64,000 nt of DNA from a virus: IMG/VR virus record IMGVR_UViG_3300020229_000001, positions 1-64,000 of that record, one strand, 5' to 3'. Under the pieces are notes generated by a model, which worked only from the letters and a program-made list of their open reading frames with translations, searched no databases and had not been told where the DNA came from. Shown here piece after piece: positions 4,782 to 55,455 of the stretch (position 1 is the stretch's first letter; every line of letters begins with the position of its first letter). A program made the position numbers and the translations under genes.

Positions 4782-5369
4782 TTATTCCAATTCCTGACAA
4801 ATAGACTTCATTTTTTCGGATTTCTTTTCTCCGTTAGCTTGGACGTGAATTATCGGAAGATTTAATTCTTCAAGCGTTGAGCCCAGTCCAAGGATTTCAG
4901 CTTCGCTCTTCATCCTAGACCCATCTAGCCAAGGTTCAGACAAGAACTTATCCAGGGCTTGAGTGATGCATTTCTGTGAAACGTAAAACAAATAAGCCTT
5001 GTCCTGGGTGATATGTAGCTGGGATTCTAGCTCAAGCTTTCCAGCCTGTTCTGGAGTAAATCCAGCGTTTATAACGTCGTAATGGCTCATCCAGCCCCCC
5101 TTCGAGGCGTGAAGGGCGCACCACCTTAGCAAGGTTGCCGAGAACTGATCTCTGACCGGCCCAGGATGCATATTCTCTTGGGTGGCAAATTCATGGATTC
5201 TCCTGGCTAGCTTTGTGGAATATTGAGAAGCAGCGGCGTGCGATTTATTCAGCATCGCCGGCGCCCACCCAGCTTTTTGCCAAGAGTGTTTCCAGTAATT
5301 AGCTCGAGCAAACTGCTCGTCCTGGTTTGAATTCAGGACGGCAGAATAAAATGCGTAGATCGGCTTCAT
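4782..5369 (-). CDS. Glycosyltransferase-like protein (DXD sugar-binding type, degenerate)
   Basis: W..SW..AGW...LN and LRWCAL..KGGWMSHYDVIN resemble GT32-like RW.AL..GG..(D)YD; DxD replaced by HYD. Confidence 0.45.
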   Translation of the reverse strand: MKPIYAFYSAVLNSNQDEQFARANYWKHSWQKAGWAPAMLNKSHAAASQYSTKLARRIHEFATQENMHPGPVRDQFSATLLRWCALHASKGGWMSHYDVINAGFTPEQAGKLELESQLHITQDKAYLFYVSQKCITQALDKFLSEPWLDGSRMKSEAEILGLGSTLEELNLPIIHVQANGEKKSEKMKSICQELE

Positions 5370-6379
5370 ACATTCCCGCCCCCAAACGCGTGCCGCCCAA
5401 CGTTGTAAACCGGAATCCCGAAATCGCAGTAGGACTGATGGCCAGCCTTCCGAGCCAAAGCACAGAATGCGGCGTCGCCTTTAAAAAACTCCAGGGGCGC
5501 GTTTGGGCGATTGGGTCGGATGCTTGGGTCGGTTGCTTCAATGTCTTCAAAAACGCGACGGTGAATGAGCAGCATTCCGGAACCGATCCAGTCTACCGGA
5601 TGCACCGCCTCTGCGTGCTGCCGCGTCAGGGCCACCGCGTTAGGGTGACCGCACGCGACAGCGGCGCCAGCCTGTTTGCCGAAATAAGAGGCGCCCACCA
5701 GCTTTCGACCAGCGCCCATGAGCCGGTGAAGAACGTGGCGGTTGATGACATTGTCCTGGACAGAAGCAGGCAGGGCCAATTTGCGACGGGTAAACGGCGC
5801 CCGTCCAATTGCCGGAACGATATCATTGCCGACCATAAGCAACCAAGGCGCGTCGGTTTGCAGGAACAACCCAACAAGCTGGTTCTTGGCCTCGTTAGGA
5901 TCAGGGTCTGTTGCGTAGTCGAATCGAATCTTGTCTTTGCCAAAGTCCAATGCAAGCGCCAGCAACCCGAAAGCCGTGGCGACGTTTGTGTCAAAGTTGC
6001 AGTGAAACCCGACAAAAACGTCACGGCCTGGCCACTCGACGCGGTAATTCGGAGAGCCGGCCTGGCTTCTCGTTTCAGCAATTGGGTTCTCAAACACCGG
6101 CGCCTCAATGTCCTCAAGGCTGATCTCAATTGCATCTGCGGATGCCTTTGGCGGGCGTCCTGGCTTACGCTTGGGAATGGACGAGTCTGGGATTGGAGTT
6201 TGCCGAGGCCGGCCAGGGCCGCGCTTTGCATCTTCGTCCAATAGTGCCGGAGCTGGCGTTTCTGGGACCGGCGCCGGAATTGGCTTTCCATTCTTCAGCG
6301 TTGGCTTTGGCGCCGTGTTGAATGGATTAGGCGAATCCAGTGCGTTGAGGGTAATGTCTTCAAGTCGTGTCGTGCTCAT
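5366..6379 (-). CDS. AT-hook-containing protein with C-terminal GT-A (GT2-like) domain
   Basis: KRGPGRPR and KRKPGRPPK AT-hooks; NEAKNQLV..FL..DAPWLLMVGNDI, VDWIGSGMLLIHRRVF, GDAAFC..ARKAG..YCD match GT-A motifs. Confidence 0.55.
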   Translation of the reverse strand: MSTTRLEDITLNALDSPNPFNTAPKPTLKNGKPIPAPVPETPAPALLDEDAKRGPGRPRQTPIPDSSIPKRKPGRPPKASADAIEISLEDIEAPVFENPIAETRSQAGSPNYRVEWPGRDVFVGFHCNFDTNVATAFGLLALALDFGKDKIRFDYATDPDPNEAKNQLVGLFLQTDAPWLLMVGNDIVPAIGRAPFTRRKLALPASVQDNVINRHVLHRLMGAGRKLVGASYFGKQAGAAVACGHPNAVALTRQHAEAVHPVDWIGSGMLLIHRRVFEDIEATDPSIRPNRPNAPLEFFKGDAAFCALARKAGHQSYCDFGIPVYNVGRHAFGGGNV

Positions 6380-27878: not shown

Positions 27879-28136
27879 TTATTTTCTAACTGAGCGACGT
27901 GCCGGAATTCGGGCAGGTTTGCCTGGCATCGTGATTTTCTTTTCGTCTGTCTTAACTTTTTTTGCGTCGGCGGCACCTTTGTCCTTTGTTGGTGATTTGT
28001 AGGGCTTTGCAGCTTCCAGGCCGATACGGATTTCCGGCGAGCCGGTGTTTAACGAAACGCCAGAGTGGGTCTTTTCGGGCGCCTGGTAGGACGCTTTACC
28101 AGGCGTCACGGGGGTTTTTTTAGGTGGGAATCTCAT
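27879..28136 (-). CDS. Lys/Pro-rich basic protein
   Basis: 85 aa, coupled. Confidence 0.5.
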   Translation of the reverse strand: MRFPPKKTPVTPGKASYQAPEKTHSGVSLNTGSPEIRIGLEAAKPYKSPTKDKGAADAKKVKTDEKKITMPGKPARIPARRSVRK

Positions 28137-28354
28137 TTGTAATTCTCTTTTTCTGTTAACATTGTCTCAGCAAGCTTGAATGACTCTACAGAAGCGTCGG
28201 ACGAGTCCCATCCGGCAGCAAGCAGGCCGGTAAGAGCTGCCGCCGCAAAGTAGTCCAGGATGCTCATGCCGCTGTTTGATCGCACCGCCGCATTGTCTCG
28301 GTCGCCAGGGTAAGCCTGGACAGGAAAAGCTGGGTAGATAGGTATTCGTTTCAT
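28133..28354 (-). CDS. Conserved small phage protein (PAFP...GMS..DYFAA.A type)
   Basis: PAFP, GMSILDYFAAAALTG, A..ML motifs. Confidence 0.75.
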   Translation of the reverse strand: MKRIPIYPAFPVQAYPGDRDNAAVRSNSGMSILDYFAAAALTGLLAAGWDSSDASVESFKLAETMLTEKENYK

Positions 28355-28357
28355 TTA

Positions 28358-29059
28358 TTAAAAAAGTCTGTTTAGCCAGAGCGTCCTGGCTCCAATCGGG
28401 TCGATCAGAGGTTTTCCGAGGCGCTCGTTGACATTATTATGCAGACGCACCGACCAGTCAAACAGACGAGTGTAGTCCGGCGGGTCGGCAGCCAGGAAGG
28501 CTTCCAGGTGCGCTTTGCACGGGCACCCGTCAAACGGGAGGTCTCCCATCCAGTCCAGGAGCCAATGGTGCATATACCTAGGTTTCCCTTCGTGCCGGAG
28601 CGCGTACAGGTGCAGCTCCGCCCAAAACCTCGGGCCGGCCAGCATGATTTGGCTCTTCCGGCTTTCGCCGCGGTCGTAGATGCGCTCAACCTCGTTGCCG
28701 GCGTTGATGACCCATTGGTTATGGGCGTCCCAATCAGTTGAGAATGACATTGCGACCGTTTTCTCGGTCAACATGGCCGCCTGGTGTTGGATATGGTACG
28801 GCGCCTTGGGATCGTCGCCAGGCTCCTCGAGCTTGGGATGATCGGTGTCAAATTTGGTGACTTCCTCGTCGGTGATCCCGTCGCGCTTACAAAGCCATGC
28901 TTCGACAAGCTCATGCAGGGCCACCAGGAGGGCGCTTTGGTCCTGGCCGCCGTAGTCTGGCGCCGTAATCTTCAGCGCGCCGTCTGGGAGCCATTCCCAG
29001 TCGCCGGCTGTAGGATAACGCATGGCCGACGCGTCGATGGTCTTAATCTCAATCCTCAT
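28358..29059 (-). CDS. Fusion of a zincin/metal-binding-like domain and an Erv1/Alr-like sulfhydryl oxidase domain
   Basis: N-part RYPTAGDW...LHELVE...EPGDDP.APYH.QH; C-part FWAELH...LP.DGCPCKAH...FDWSVRLHNNVNERLGKP. Confidence 0.7.
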   Translation of the reverse strand: MRIEIKTIDASAMRYPTAGDWEWLPDGALKITAPDYGGQDQSALLVALHELVEAWLCKRDGITDEEVTKFDTDHPKLEEPGDDPKAPYHIQHQAAMLTEKTVAMSFSTDWDAHNQWVINAGNEVERIYDRGESRKSQIMLAGPRFWAELHLYALRHEGKPRYMHHWLLDWMGDLPFDGCPCKAHLEAFLAADPPDYTRLFDWSVRLHNNVNERLGKPLIDPIGARTLWLNRLF

Positions 29060-30324
29060 TCGTTAAACACGCTGAGGTTGAGCTTCTCCATTTCCTTGAT
29101 CTGCTCTCGCACCTGCTCAATGGCAGAGCTTTTTGACTCGAGGTAGTAACCTTCAACCTGCTCTGCGTTCTCTAAAGCGTGCGCAAACGCGTCTTCCATT
29201 GTGTCGCCCAGGCCGATAACAGCGCCTATCTCCGGCAGCCCACAGTCCTGGGGGATGCAATAAAAGCCGTCCTTGTTCTTGTAAACGTTCCGGAGCTTAA
29301 CAAAATCCCGGATCTCGTCGGGGAATTTGACCTTCTGCCAATTCTGGTCCGCCCAGGACGAGTGGAGCATGATCTCGGCGCCATAAATGGCCGTCGGCTC
29401 AGGATCAACCACAACGCCGTTCGCTCCGTACCACATACACTCTGCCAGGTTGGAATACTGCTCCTGGTAGAGCTCGTTTGGAGGACTCGGAGCCCTGGCG
29501 CAGAAATCGATCATGTAGGGATCCATGTCTTTCCCGATCCGGATCTCGGTCGAGAAAAAGCCGCGGTATCCGTAAGCCTCGAAAACCGGCTTCATCGCCT
29601 CATTAAAGCGAGTTAAAGGTTCCGGAAGGTCGGCGTAGTTTTTGAAGACGGAGGCGAACCCGCAATCCTTGATCTCCAGGCCGGAGATGAGCGTATTCGG
29701 AAACTGGCCGTCGATTGTCCAGGCATCTGTCCCAAACTCAACGCGGTCGGGAAGGTCTTCCTCGACAATAAATTTGAGGTCATGCTTGAGCGGCCCGAGC
29801 TTGTACTCGACCTCGTCCAGTTTTGGCTCCACCTCTTCATACGAGGGCGCCTTGAATGTTTCAAAAGTGCCGCGGTACTTGTCGATCTTGACGTGAACGT
29901 CGTCGTGCTCCTTCAGGAAGGAGCGCAGGTTGTCCATGCCAGTGATTTCCCAATACTTGCCAACAGGCAGGCCGGTGCGCTCGATAATGCGCTTCATGCC
30001 GGCGCGGTCCAGTTCCATTTCCTCGCCCAGGCGAGAACCCCAGACAACCTTACCCATCCGGTCCAGCATTCGCTGCTCCCATCCAAAATAGATATCGGGG
30101 AAGCAGAAGAAATCGACGTCGTCAAAATGCGGGCCGTAGATGGAATCAACCAGCTCCAGGCCGTCCAACCCCTTGCCGATCCAGGCGGTGTTCAGCTTGG
30201 CAAAGGCGCACTCCCAGGGGCAATAATAGTAAACCTTTTTGAAGGTCTTGCTTAGTTTTAGCGCAAGTTCAACAAACAGGCCGTTGTCTACGACAAGACA
30301 GACTACGTCTTTTGGGTCTTTCAT
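29056..30324 (-). CDS. ATP-grasp ligase, PurD (GAR synthetase)-like
   Basis: MELDR..MK.....GLP, HVK, FIVEE, GYRGFFSTE, YMIDFCAR.P.P, GAVIGLGDT.E.A...A; three-domain GARS layout, 422 aa. Confidence 0.78.
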   Translation of the reverse strand: MKDPKDVVCLVVDNGLFVELALKLSKTFKKVYYYCPWECAFAKLNTAWIGKGLDGLELVDSIYGPHFDDVDFFCFPDIYFGWEQRMLDRMGKVVWGSRLGEEMELDRAGMKRIIERTGLPVGKYWEITGMDNLRSFLKEHDDVHVKIDKYRGTFETFKAPSYEEVEPKLDEVEYKLGPLKHDLKFIVEEDLPDRVEFGTDAWTIDGQFPNTLISGLEIKDCGFASVFKNYADLPEPLTRFNEAMKPVFEAYGYRGFFSTEIRIGKDMDPYMIDFCARAPSPPNELYQEQYSNLAECMWYGANGVVVDPEPTAIYGAEIMLHSSWADQNWQKVKFPDEIRDFVKLRNVYKNKDGFYCIPQDCGLPEIGAVIGLGDTMEDAFAHALENAEQVEGYYLESKSSAIEQVREQIKEMEKLNLSVFNE

Positions 30325-30590
30325 TTGCAGTTCCAGCGTTTAAGTGATGCGGCTTTACGGGTTGGGCGACCCTTTTCGTCTTTCATCGGACCGGGATTGC
30401 CGCTCATTCTAGCGCAGAATGAAGCCTTTCTGCCAGCGTCGGCCTTGGTCTTTGGGTGCGGCGCAGGCGCCTTCAAGTTGCTGCCAGTTGCCGCGTTGAT
30501 TTTGGCTCGGCCCTTGGCTGTTAGCCCGGCGCCCCGGGAAACAGGAAGCTTATCTCCCTTCGATACAGATAGTTTTGGTGTTTTTGGCAT
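30321..30590 (-). CDS. Basic DUF6321-like phage protein
   Basis: GLTAKGRAK.N..TGSNLKAP...RKASFCARMSG..GPMKDEKGRPTRKA.SL.RW.C. Confidence 0.75.
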   Translation of the reverse strand: MPKTPKLSVSKGDKLPVSRGAGLTAKGRAKINAATGSNLKAPAPHPKTKADAGRKASFCARMSGNPGPMKDEKGRPTRKAASLKRWNCK

Positions 30591-43075: not shown

Positions 43076-43588
43076 CTAAGAGCCCCCAAAGGAGATTTGA
43101 CCTAAATTCGGGACTTGAAATTGTTTCACCTCGGGCGGGGTTGCCGTCATTTGGTTTGCCGCCCGGGCAGCTTGTGGGCCTTGAGACACTTGAGCTGCTT
43201 GCGGTGACATTCTTGGCGATTGGGTTGTAGCAGCGGGGGAAACGGGCGCTGCTGCCGCTCCGGGTGCTTTAAGCACGCTCGCGTTGGTTATGCCCTGAGG
43301 GGCAGAATATGCCGTTGGCTGCTGCACTGCTGGTGTTACTGAAGCGGAAGTAGAAGGTGATGCAGATGGCGCTGGAAGCCCTTGTGCAGGCTCTGTCTTT
43401 ACTGGGTGAGCATCTCCATACGCTTTGGTGAAATCACCGTAGCTCTGTCCTTTTGCGGGGGGAGGAGCGTCAGAGTGAGCCGCAGCAAACTCACGATTTT
43501 TTGTAAAATCCGAGCCAAAAGTAGCATTTAAAAAGTTGGTTCCACCTATTTTTTCAATAAAGTCAGGGTTTTTAAATTTTCCGCCCAT
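43076..43588 (-). CDS. Low-complexity virion protein with FGG-X C-terminal tag
   Basis: Starts MGG; ends FQVPNLGQISFGGS. Confidence 0.65.
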   Translation of the reverse strand: MGGKFKNPDFIEKIGGTNFLNATFGSDFTKNREFAAAHSDAPPPAKGQSYGDFTKAYGDAHPVKTEPAQGLPAPSASPSTSASVTPAVQQPTAYSAPQGITNASVLKAPGAAAAPVSPAATTQSPRMSPQAAQVSQGPQAARAANQMTATPPEVKQFQVPNLGQISFGGS

Positions 43589-43590
43589 AA

Positions 43591-44148
43591 TTAAGATCCT
43601 CCAAAGGTTAAGCCCGAAATGCTCGGGAGACGAAAGTTGCTCTGCTCTTGCGCTTGTTGTGTAAGAAAAGCTCCACCGCCACCCGGCTTATTATAAACTG
43701 GAGCATTTTTTACTGCTTTTGTCATGGAAGTTGGTGCGCTAAAATTAGTTGGCGACCCATCGCTCGTAGACATTGGTCCCACAGCTTGCATTGGTCCCAC
43801 AGCTTGACTAGCTGTTGTATCTGGAGCAGTTGCCGTAACTGGTCCGCCAAGGGTAGCCTGCCCAACAATGTTTGGATGCTGAATGTCATAAAGTTTTTTT
43901 GCCTGAACGTCAGAGGCTGCTTTTGCTTGAGCATCCGCATTAGCTGCGGCCAAGCTATTTGCCTTCATTAAGTTAAGCCCTACGCCCGCAGAAACAAGTC
44001 CAATTGGCCCCATGAACGGGGCAGTGGCAACCAGTACTGGAGCAAGTTCTTTTGGAACCGCTTTAGTAAATTCTTTTGGAACAGCCTTGGCTATTTCATT
44101 GGGAATCATTTTTGCAACGGCACGAAATCCAGATGACAACCAGCTCAT
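43591..44148 (-). CDS. Low-complexity virion protein with FGG-X C-terminal tag
   Basis: Ends FRLPSISGLTFGGS. Confidence 0.65.
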   Translation of the reverse strand: MSWLSSGFRAVAKMIPNEIAKAVPKEFTKAVPKELAPVLVATAPFMGPIGLVSAGVGLNLMKANSLAAANADAQAKAASDVQAKKLYDIQHPNIVGQATLGGPVTATAPDTTASQAVGPMQAVGPMSTSDGSPTNFSAPTSMTKAVKNAPVYNKPGGGGAFLTQQAQEQSNFRLPSISGLTFGGS

Positions 44149-44149
44149 A

Positions 44150-44632
44150 TTATATTCCTCCAAAAGTTACTCCAGTCGTGCGGGGCATCTGGAATTGTGA
44201 TTGCTTAGAATTGGGCATAGCTGGGTTTACTGGGCTCAAGTTGCTTCCAGCAAGATTGGCCGCAGTCCGGGGTAGATAGTATGCCGCTGCGCTTAAATTA
44301 GATAGCTTGGCTTGATTTAAGGCATTAACGTCAATTGCGCCACCAGTAATGGCGGACCCAGCCATTCCCGCCTGAGCTGCCGCCGCCTGTGAGGCAGTAG
44401 AATCTTTTGCCTTCTGATAAGCCTGCGCTCGAAGGAGGCTTTGTTGCGCCTGAGAATTACTCTGGTTCATGCCTAGCTGCGCTGCGTTATTTTGAGCGTC
44501 AATCATGGCTCTGCGCTGGGCTTCCGCTGCATCCTGCGCTGCTGCCCCCTGTTGTTGGCGCATCAATTCAATCTGCGCGATCATCGGAGTGTAATCAGGA
44601 GGTGGTGGTGCTGAGTAATGTGATCCGCCCAT
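44150..44632 (-). CDS. Low-complexity virion protein with FGG-X C-terminal tag
   Basis: MGGS..APPPPDY start typical of ejection proteins; ends FQMPRTTGVTFGGI. Confidence 0.7.
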   Translation of the reverse strand: MGGSHYSAPPPPDYTPMIAQIELMRQQQGAAAQDAAEAQRRAMIDAQNNAAQLGMNQSNSQAQQSLLRAQAYQKAKDSTASQAAAAQAGMAGSAITGGAIDVNALNQAKLSNLSAAAYYLPRTAANLAGSNLSPVNPAMPNSKQSQFQMPRTTGVTFGGI

Positions 44633-53426: not shown

Positions 53427-54320
53427 TTATTCAATTAATTTTACCCAAGGTTCGATGCGGTTACTCCAGTCAAAATTTTCCCTAGCGTACTGCTGAGACC
53501 GCTCGCAGGTTTCTTTGTAGATTATCGGGTCTTGGTGCGCCAGCAAAGCAGCTCTAGCGTCTTTTACCCACTCATCTTCCGGGAGACGGCAATTGATGCC
53601 AAAATTCCCGTCAAAGTAGCCAACCCCGGCGGAGCACAAAACCAATCGGCCAGCAGCCGCCGCTTCCATCATGGGCAGTCCGCAGGCTTCATAGCTAGAG
53701 GGCAACAAAAGAGCGTCTATCGTCTGGTAGAACGAAGCCATGCACAAATGATGCATGAAATTGTGGTCTTTAAACTCAAGCGGCAACCCATCCAGCACCC
53801 TTGGGATAAGTTCTTTTCGTTTGCAGTCAACTCCATCAGGACGGTTATGGAACAGCGCCCCGGCGTACCCGGCAATCTTCACTGCATTGCCTATAGGCGA
53901 GTAGAAAAAGTCAAAATCAATGCCGTTGAGTACGACATCTGGAATTCGCGTCAGCCCAAACTGCTGACTAGACGATACCAGCGACTCGTGGACAGCTCCG
54001 TAGGCTTTCAGGCCGTCAAACATCTCAGGACCAGCAGCCATGACTGCTTTGTGGATGTCGTCGTCGGCGTGAGCAACCGTAATGATCCGCTCTTTTGGAA
54101 TTCCAAAAGTCTGCATCAAAACAGGAACCTGCGGAGGGTTTGTGTACCAGTACTCAAACTTTTGCCGCAAGTACTCTATCTCAAGAGCACTGTAGCTCAG
54201 ATTCCAGTCGAGAATGTGAGAGTAAATACCATGCTCCCACAGCCTTTTAATGAGGGCATTGTGGATTGTTCCAAACGCCCAAGCGTTCCGCGTAAAAAAC
54301 AGGACAGAACGGCTATACAT
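53427..54320 (-). CDS. Glycosyltransferase, GT-B (GT4-like)
   Basis: NGIDFDFF, FY..ID.LL.PS..EACGLPMMEAAAAG, ENFDW. Confidence 0.85.
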   Translation of the reverse strand: MYSRSVLFFTRNAWAFGTIHNALIKRLWEHGIYSHILDWNLSYSALEIEYLRQKFEYWYTNPPQVPVLMQTFGIPKERIITVAHADDDIHKAVMAAGPEMFDGLKAYGAVHESLVSSSQQFGLTRIPDVVLNGIDFDFFYSPIGNAVKIAGYAGALFHNRPDGVDCKRKELIPRVLDGLPLEFKDHNFMHHLCMASFYQTIDALLLPSSYEACGLPMMEAAAAGRLVLCSAGVGYFDGNFGINCRLPEDEWVKDARAALLAHQDPIIYKETCERSQQYARENFDWSNRIEPWVKLIE

Positions 54321-55455
54321 ACAGGCTCTTGTAATCCAACCCGAGCGAAGTCAATGGTCTGTCGTGCAACTCGTACCAGCCTTTGCCGTGCATTACGTCC
54401 GAGAAATCGGCAAACGCCCGTTCAAACTTGGGGCGCACCGCATCGAGCGAGAAATTGTCCTGAGCAAAACGAATCATTCGGTCCCGGTTAATAGTTGGAA
54501 CAAGCCTAATGGCCCGGAGGATATCTCCCATTGTGTTGCACCTAAATCCATTCACGCCATCAACGATATATTCTGTCATTGCCCCCGAGTCAGTACAGAC
54601 CGGGACACAGCCCGACAGCATTGATTCAACGGCAGTTCCGCCAAACGGCTCCCAGTATGTTGAGAGGAGGAATGAAAACGATGCCTCCCCTAGTAGGCGC
54701 TTTCGCGTCTCAAGGTCTGCGTATCCAATGTACTCGACGTGATCTGGCCATTTCTCGTACCCCACGTCCCGTGGGCCTCCCTGCCCGGCCACGACCAGTT
54801 TAATGCCAGCCCGGAACGAAGCCTCAATTGCGATATCAACGCCTTTATTTGGGCCGATGCGGCCCAGCGCAACGGCATAAGGCTGACGCTCGCTTTTTGC
54901 CTCAAAGTCTCGAAGATCAAAATAGTTTGGGACAACACGTCCATACCATTCTGGGTTGCAATAAGCGACAGTTTGCGTCCCGGCAAAAGCCGCCTTGAGC
55001 GGATAGGACTCGTAGCATCTAAATTGAGCAAAAGCGTACCCAGAGCCAATCCCGGGTTCCACGATGATCAGATCGCCGTCTTTGTTTGCGTCATGCGCGG
55101 ACTGAGCCGTGCCGCCCCAAAAGCACAAAACAAAGTCTCCCCGTTGCTTTCGAGCGTAGATCTCTTTACCAGCGTTTTCGTTAAACGTCTTGTGGGCGTG
55201 GTCGTCGATTGAATGTTTAAACAACCCCTTTTTCCAATCGTACCCCCCGTAAGCCTTTTTGAGAGTTTCGTTGTCGGTGACCGTCACCTGCTCGTCGGCA
55301 TCCGTCACAGAGTCTTTGTGGCCGTAGTGAATTGTCTTATAGCCACGTCCCTTGAACATGGTCAGAAACTTACGCACCTTTTGGGTAAAGGCGCACGCTA
55401 CATAGTCAGCGTTGGAAATTGTATGTGGAAGTCCAAGGCAATGTATCTGAGTCAT
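54313..55455 (-). CDS. Glycosyltransferase, GT4-like
   Basis: LGRIGPNKG, EPFGGTAVESMLSG.PV...D.G...E.I.DGVNGF. Confidence 0.9.
   Translation of the reverse strand: MTQIHCLGLPHTISNADYVACAFTQKVRKFLTMFKGRGYKTIHYGHKDSVTDADEQVTVTDNETLKKAYGGYDWKKGLFKHSIDDHAHKTFNENAGKEIYARKQRGDFVLCFWGGTAQSAHDANKDGDLIIVEPGIGSGYAFAQFRCYESYPLKAAFAGTQTVAYCNPEWYGRVVPNYFDLRDFEAKSERQPYAVALGRIGPNKGVDIAIEASFRAGIKLVVAGQGGPRDVGYEKWPDHVEYIGYADLETRKRLLGEASFSFLLSTYWEPFGGTAVESMLSGCVPVCTDSGAMTEYIVDGVNGFRCNTMGDILRAIRLVPTINRDRMIRFAQDNFSLDAVRPKFERAFADFSDVMHGKGWYELHDRPLTSLGLDYKSLYV

Follow-up and report, generated by a model that had tools for sequence, protein, structure and literature searches.

A PurD-fold ATP-grasp ligase and a putative metal-binding partner encoded behind the giant virion protein gene of a phage

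PurD, PurK and PurT act on ribotide amines, which they combine with small carboxylates. A comparable logic underlies the MfnA/MfnD enzymes of methanofuran synthesis and glutathionylspermidine synthetase, where an amine made by decarboxylation and a carboxylate are joined by an ATP-dependent ligase that has an amidase counterpart. Here we describe a locus in the IMG/VR virus record IMGVR_UViG_3300020229_000001 (94,385 bp), the first 64 kb of which are hereafter called the window. Three consecutive genes behind the gene of a giant virion protein encode a small basic protein of the DUF6321 family (gene 1), an ATP-grasp ligase (gene 2), and a 233-residue protein composed of an N-terminal domain, hereafter the N-domain, and an Erv1/ALR domain (gene 3). 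We propose, with moderate confidence, that genes 2 and 3 constitute an accessory enzyme module of the phage with a late-expressed carboxylate–amine ligase, most likely with a small-molecule substrate. The substrate is probably not a protein ending in Phe-Gly-Gly and one further residue (FGG-X), to which a preliminary description of the locus had linked the ligase.

The ligase and its family

The AlphaFold2 model of the 422-residue ligase (predicted local distance difference test, pLDDT, 92.5; predicted template-modelling score, pTM, 0.91) matches 13 PurD entries with Z scores of 27–31, and 362–381 of its 422 residues are aligned. This comparison, proposed in the preliminary description, revealed a complete PurD fold with all four domains (N, B, A, and C). 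The second tier of matches is formed by PurK and PurT (Z ~24), followed by biotin carboxylases (Z ~22). The top 50 structural matches consist of PurD, PurK, PurT, and biotin carboxylases; the protein-modifying ATP-grasps, which are absent from this list, may still be related to the ligase. K146, E188/E189, D273, and R277 of the ligase, which are invariant or nearly so in the family, align in hhalign with the PurD motifs IKADG, VIEEFL, and IEFNCR. Therefore, the nucleotide and metal binding of the ligase look intact, as judged from the aligned residues.

The sequence of the ligase has diverged far from that of PurD. The NCBIfam purD model TIGR00877 gives 15.4 bits relative to a cut-off of 288, and the PurK match reaches 12 bits, with no further sequence relationship to PurK or PurT detectable. 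A profile of the ligase family retrieved PurD chains from the PDB only with E-values of 0.004–0.9, and the hhalign probability of a match to Escherichia coli PurD is 7%. When TIGR00877 was run across the whole record, it yielded only a match of 9.5 bits, whereas 14 of 14 control genomes scored above the cut-off. Two loops of E. coli PurD with a substrate-binding role, GNGGREHA and GPNTGGMG, are replaced in the ligase family by DNGLFVEL and EIKDCGFASVF, respectively. Models of purF, purN, and purM found no match in the 94-kb record; other purine genes were not searched. Because the purD score is below the cut-off, the signature loops are missing, and purF, purN, and purM were not found, the ligase is a PurD-derived ATP-grasp enzyme and not a glycinamide ribonucleotide (GAR) synthetase. 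The description of the protein as a GAR synthetase-like ATP-grasp thus holds for the fold and fails for the sequence, and the accompanying claims that the locus lacks other purine-synthesis genes and does not serve purine metabolism agree with our searches. A genuine auxiliary PurD that boosts host purine synthesis would explain why PurD is the best structural match and why distant homologues in Aquificae viruses carry this annotation, but in view of the score, the hhalign result, the lost loops, and the missing pathway genes, we find this explanation hardly credible.

The ligase belongs to a large family with at least 524 word-indexed relatives. It comprises 1227 clusters (50% identity, E ≤ 1e-3), 727 of which match with E ≤ 1e-30, and ~96% of the family is viral according to the Atlas cluster taxa. 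A search of 185,579 species genomes matched the ligase to only four contigs, all from metagenome-assembled genomes (MAGs). These contigs (L097–L100) were binned as Opitutaceae, Sedimentisphaerales, Fimbriimonadaceae, and Armatimonadota. The bins hint only weakly at host groups, because phage contigs are not binned reliably. The only GenBank phages with a match are three Aquificae viruses, whose proteins are 24–26% identical to the ligase and are annotated as PurD or PurK; the evidence presented here contradicts these labels. The 233-residue protein has no match among GenBank phages, and the small open reading frames (ORFs) flanking the ligase homologues of the Aquificae viruses match neither of the partner hidden Markov models (HMMs). 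We found no published work on the ligase family.

The alignment of the family has a mean column identity of 58% and ~65 invariant columns, and the ligase is 43–98% identical across phages whose neighboring genes no longer align. Inserts of ~320–360 residues interrupt 12 homologues (P0215, P0216, P0219, P0220, P0244, P0267, P0269, P0273, P0282, P0313, P0324, and P0339). Most of the inserts have intein hallmarks: they start with C..TE[IV]LT and end with SGN followed by Cys or Ser. The four intein sites are near residues 152, 197, 221, and 275 (window numbering), each at or beside a family-invariant residue. The targeting of four sites at invariant motifs by inteins marks the ligase as a strongly constrained enzyme. 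It is among the best-conserved enzymes of a large group of uncultivated phages, yet searches of Pfam and PHROG with the 422-residue sequence returned zero matches, and neither database has a model for it.

A diverged second copy of the module is located at ~90.9–94.1 kb of the record (G000; locus L081), outside the window. Its ligase is 72.5% identical to that in the window, it has its own gene for the N-domain fused to an Erv domain, and the end of the giant gene next to it shares 90.7% DNA identity. The 94-kb record is ~1.5 times as long as its relatives of 60–64 kb, and may therefore join two related phage variants.

The 233-residue partner protein

The N-domain contains the motifs H49-E-L-V-E53 and A86-P-Y-H-I-Q-H92, and the putative metal ligands noticed in the preliminary description are thus present as H49, E53, and H92. 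Across 37 distinct relatives, H49, E53, D71, and H92 are invariant, and E79-P80, P87-Y88, A95, and E99 are nearly so; H49 is missing from several members fused to Erv. The fold matches are weak (Z 4–5) and consistently point to small zincin-like proteins: YbeY, selecase, PprI, CapP, abylysin, and SPRTN. An Atlas lead connected the domain to Peptidase_M78 with a score of 0.78, and 7 of 20 members weakly match the Pfam family Fe_dep_repr_C, a DtxR-type metal-binding helix, below the cut-off (best E = 9e-4). The profile of the N-domain had no match among the PDB sequences, and a stand-alone member had none among PHROGs. The first motif reads H49-E50-x-x-E53, not HExxH, and position 50, which would hold the catalytic glutamate of a zincin, is occupied by Ala or Ser in 6 of the 37 members. 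From this pattern of residues, we read the N-domain as a metal-binding domain and not as a demonstrated peptidase; the peptidase function assigned to it earlier does not fit the missing HExxH, the substituted glutamate, and the low Z scores.

A peptidase had been assumed in the proposal that the zincin-like domain clips FGG-X tails and the ATP-grasp ligase then joins the Gly-Gly carboxylate to an amine, in a ubiquitin-like conjugation. Three tandem ORFs of the window with the C-termini FGG[SI], two ORFs with similar ends in a relative (see below), and the conservation of the ligase and the metal-binding domain as a pair speak for it. We scanned ten related genomes carrying the ligase for ORFs that end with F-G-G-X-stop. 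One of them (G001, the record of locus L009; 68% ligase identity), which is one of two close relatives sampled, has two such ORFs of 250 and 504 residues from stop to stop (L087 and L089). They end with FGGN and FGGL within a shared ...PKVD.L.FGG[NL] terminus. The remaining matches of the scan were ORFs of 46 residues or less, and the nine other genomes yielded no real ORF with such an end. Three of these nine are complete (G004, G008, and G009) and have the ligase with the N-domain gene, a decarboxylase gene, or both beside it. With real FGG-X ORFs confined to the window and G001, the tails characterize this phage lineage and show no coupling to the ligase. The co-occurrence check thus speaks against the suggested link. 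Conjugation of a ubiquitin-like type without an E1 enzyme has become less likely, also because the closest structural relatives, PurD, PurK, and PurT, are small-molecule enzymes, and the absence of HExxH and the unconserved glutamate leave the clipping and ligation of FGG-X tails with a small probability. A looser C-terminus of the FGG type (...RHAFGGGNV) ends a 337-residue ORF of the window outside the three tandem genes.

Residues 137–233 of the partner protein match the Erv1/ALR family PF04777 with E = 4e-8 and 33.8 bits, above the gathering cut-off of 27.6. The sequence match to pB119L of African swine fever virus (ASFV; PDB 3gwl) has E = 3e-8, and the fold resembles 3gwl (Z 13.5), Erv1 (Z 12.5), and mimivirus R596 (Z 11.5). 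In the flavin motifs W-x3-H and H-N-x-V-N, residues W146, H150, H207, and N208 are nearly invariant among 24 family members. The position aligned with the CxxC motif is occupied by C179-P-C181; most family members keep CPC, and CGC is seen in one. The fusion to Erv is confined to the ~20 closest loci, and elsewhere the N-domain is usually a stand-alone protein of ~120–140 residues. A search for longer N-domain fusions returned only those with Erv.

Gene neighborhood and possible function

The gene context of the ligase was compared in 80 IMG/VR loci with a ligase relative, four MAG contigs, and the second copy in the record. The N-domain adjoins the ligase in 45 of the 80 loci, two of the four MAG contigs, and the second copy. 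It is encoded downstream of the ligase, upstream of it, or with one gene in between, and the pairing persists through these changes in gene order. This conserved adjacency agrees with the earlier grouping of the ATP-grasp ligase with the HExxE-bearing domain. A complex prediction for the two gave a score of 0.00, which provides no verdict and was not used as evidence. In 21 loci, the ligase is adjoined by a protein of 117–130 residues resembling S-adenosylmethionine decarboxylase (AdoMetDC), with the Glu-Ser self-processing site and the Ser-Cys motif kept. Two more loci (L042 and L053) have a clear member of the AdoMet_dc family (E = 6.5e-17) encoded upstream and overlapping the start of the ligase gene. 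In some relatives, the ligase is fused to a phosphatase of the haloacid dehalogenase (HAD) superfamily or to an acylphosphatase. A stand-alone gene upstream of the ligase in one locus encodes an N-terminal motif that by eye resembles DxDG and has a HAD-type look; Pfam gives no family for it. The module is located either after a giant virion protein or between the terminase and portal genes, and most related loci have a very large ORF ahead of the ligase.

Based on the fold, the conserved residues, and the neighbors, a mechanism can be proposed. Expression of the module would coincide with that of the late genes for virion and packaging functions. The ligase would be an active ATP-grasp enzyme, descended from the PurD, PurK, and PurT group, with an altered substrate pocket. 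As in its superfamily, it may phosphorylate a carboxylate to an acyl-phosphate, from which the acyl group would be transferred to an amine. The partner domain of ~130 residues would use His, Glu, Asp, and His as metal ligands, and may act as a hydrolase or as a substrate-handling subunit. In this phage lineage, the partner would be coupled to the CPC redox motif of an Erv-type flavin adenine dinucleotide (FAD) sulfhydryl oxidase. The location of the basic DUF6321 protein, after the giant protein and before the module, is probably fortuitous. The substrate would most likely be a polyamine, a decarboxylated-amino-acid amine, or a nucleoside-type amine. We infer a small molecule because small carboxylates and ribotide amines are what all the closest structural relatives combine, and because decarboxylase, phosphatase, and acylphosphatase partners suit metabolite chemistry.

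Several points weigh against this proposal. The adjacency of genes among related phages is in part inherited synteny, and the third magnesium-ligand position, the Asn of the PurD E-x-N motif, is Cys, Thr, or Ala in the ligase family. No AdoMetDC was found in this record, and no spermidine synthase was found in five related genomes, so that a polyamine route is at most tentative. A modification of virion proteins would fit as well: the module is located among structural genes, its N-domain is fused to a protein-disulfide oxidase, and the same phage encodes other candidates for protein modification, an Asp/Asn beta-hydroxylase of the 2-oxoglutarate (2OG) oxygenase type and a glycosyltransferase. 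In such a virion maturation, the ligase would add residues to structural or ejected proteins or cross-link them by isopeptide or ester bonds, the Erv domain would form disulfides, and the N-domain would dock or trim the substrates. The constant position of the module in late, structural, or packaging regions and the collagen-like fiber proteins encoded by the phage are consistent with this alternative. However, the nearest folds are PurD, PurK, and PurT and not the known protein-modifying ATP-grasps, and partners such as the AdoMetDC-like protein, the HAD phosphatase, and the acylphosphatase are better suited to metabolites. Moreover, the very high conservation of the ligase across phages with unalignable virion proteins argues for a universal substrate. 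We consider virion maturation less probable than a small-molecule role.

The ligase could also act on DNA or nucleotides at packaging by acylating an amine-bearing or carboxyl-bearing base, a nucleotide, or a nucleoside derived from S-adenosylmethionine, with the decarboxylase and phosphatase finishing the product. The ribotide amines handled by PurD, PurK, and PurT, the fused or apparently adjacent HAD phosphatase, the nucleoside substrate of the AdoMetDC family, and the proximity of terminase and portal genes are in line with such a role. However, a hydroxymethylase, DNA kinase, or transferase typical of hypermodification was not seen among the window ORFs scanned, many of which are unannotated, and the role is unlikely.

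A broader and more tentative reading is a widespread module specific to tailed phages, which would make an undescribed amide compound or modification needed late, at DNA packaging or virion maturation. Such a module would be built from a PurD-derived ATP-grasp enzyme, a metal protein with His, Glu, Asp, and His ligands, and, depending on the lineage, a pyruvoyl decarboxylase, HAD phosphatase, or Erv-type thiol oxidase. Its product might be a new polycation, a nucleoside conjugate, or a covalent mark installed by the enzyme on virion components. The changing partners, together with the constant location among genes for packaging and the virion, suggest a chemistry of late infection that has not yet been described for phages.

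The arrangement of the locus in the window is summarized in Table 1. The ATP-grasp gene overlaps the DUF6321 gene and the 233-residue protein gene by four nucleotides each (ATGA), which confirms that three overlapping genes follow the giant protein. The giant ORF ends with TAA, and after one base the ATG of the DUF6321 gene follows. We considered whether a frameshift fuses DUF6321 to the giant protein and discarded the idea, as the TAA, single base, and ATG represent ordinary translational coupling. The Kinase-PolyVal domain identifies the giant product as a polyvalent virion protein. Just downstream of the gene for the 233-residue protein is a 73-residue ORF with relatives in 23 loci including the window, as detected by an HMM; it matches the end of PHROG 2201 (E = 4e-6).

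The DUF6321 protein matches PF19846 with E = 2e-23 and 83.1 bits, relative to a gathering cut-off of 28.5. It has an isoelectric point of 11.2 and contains 22 Lys or Arg among its 89 residues. The matching PHROG profiles represent larger phage proteins, which align at their C-terminal ends; in the related loci, no giant protein was found to end in a DUF6321 domain. The DUF6321 gene adjoins the ligase only in 5 of the 80 IMG/VR loci, the five closest ones. It is therefore a lineage-specific neighbor and not a conserved partner of the ligase, and its inclusion in the system by the preliminary description is not borne out. In L001, L002, L005, L006, and L061, the DUF6321 protein is 89–95% identical, whereas the adjacent ligase is only 70–75% identical. 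For a basic protein of this small size, such a constraint is unusually strong.

Table 1 Features of the window discussed in the text, with positions numbered from its first nucleotide.
Feature	Position	Strand	Basis or remark
DUF6321 protein, 89 aa	30590-30321	minus	ORF and Pfam PF19846
PurD-fold ATP-grasp ligase, 422 aa	30324-29056	minus	ORF and AlphaFold2 fold
233-aa protein, two domains	29059-28358	minus	ORF and domain matches
N-domain of 233-aa protein, residues 1-132	28664..29059	minus	family alignment, weak zincin-like fold
Erv1/ALR FAD sulfhydryl oxidase domain, residues 137-233	28361..28651	minus	PF04777, fold
73-aa ORF	28133-28354	minus	
Polyvalent virion protein, 3468 aa	40998-30592	minus	Pfam Kinase-PolyVal, E 4e-16; directly upstream of 89-aa gene
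Three tandem ORFs with FGGS, FGGS, FGGI C-termini	43076..44632	minus	ends read from sequence; upstream of giant ORF
337-aa ORF	5366-6379	minus	
Asp/Asn beta-hydroxylase family protein, 228 aa	15935-16621	minus	PF05118, E 1e-36
Glycosyltransferase	54313-55455		same phage

Comparison with known systems

The likeness of the proposed module to the MfnA/MfnD-type pairs concerns its logic, and the phage in the window has no decarboxylase. The ligase shares with PurD (PDB 2yw2, 3lp8, and 1gso) the four-domain fold, and its ATP-binding Lys, hinge Glu-Glu, acidic magnesium ligand, and the following Arg align with those of PurD. It differs from PurD in being only 13–18% identical to it, in the replacement of E-x-N by D-x-C, in the lack of a purine pathway context, and in belonging to a viral family. 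PurK and PurT catalyze the same general chemistry, the joining of a small carboxylate to an amine, but as the second structural tier they are less similar to the ligase than PurD is.

The N-domain has in common with minigluzincins and selecase, the IrrE/PprI/CapP group, SprT, and YbeY a sheet of three strands followed by a helix with two metal ligands four residues apart. In contrast to these small zincins, it has the motif H-[EAS]-x-x-E and no sequence match to them, and locally it is more like the metal helix of DtxR and MntR with its H-x3-E motif. The Erv domain resembles ASFV pB119L, mimivirus R596, and vaccinia E10R in its helical FAD-binding fold, in the W...H and HNxVN motifs, and in being encoded by a virus. 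Whereas those oxidases belong to large DNA viruses of eukaryotes, the domain in the window is encoded by a tailed phage, has C-P-C in place of CxxC, and is fused to an unrelated N-terminal domain that probably binds metal. It is already unusual for a tailed phage to encode an Erv-type oxidase with a CPC motif.

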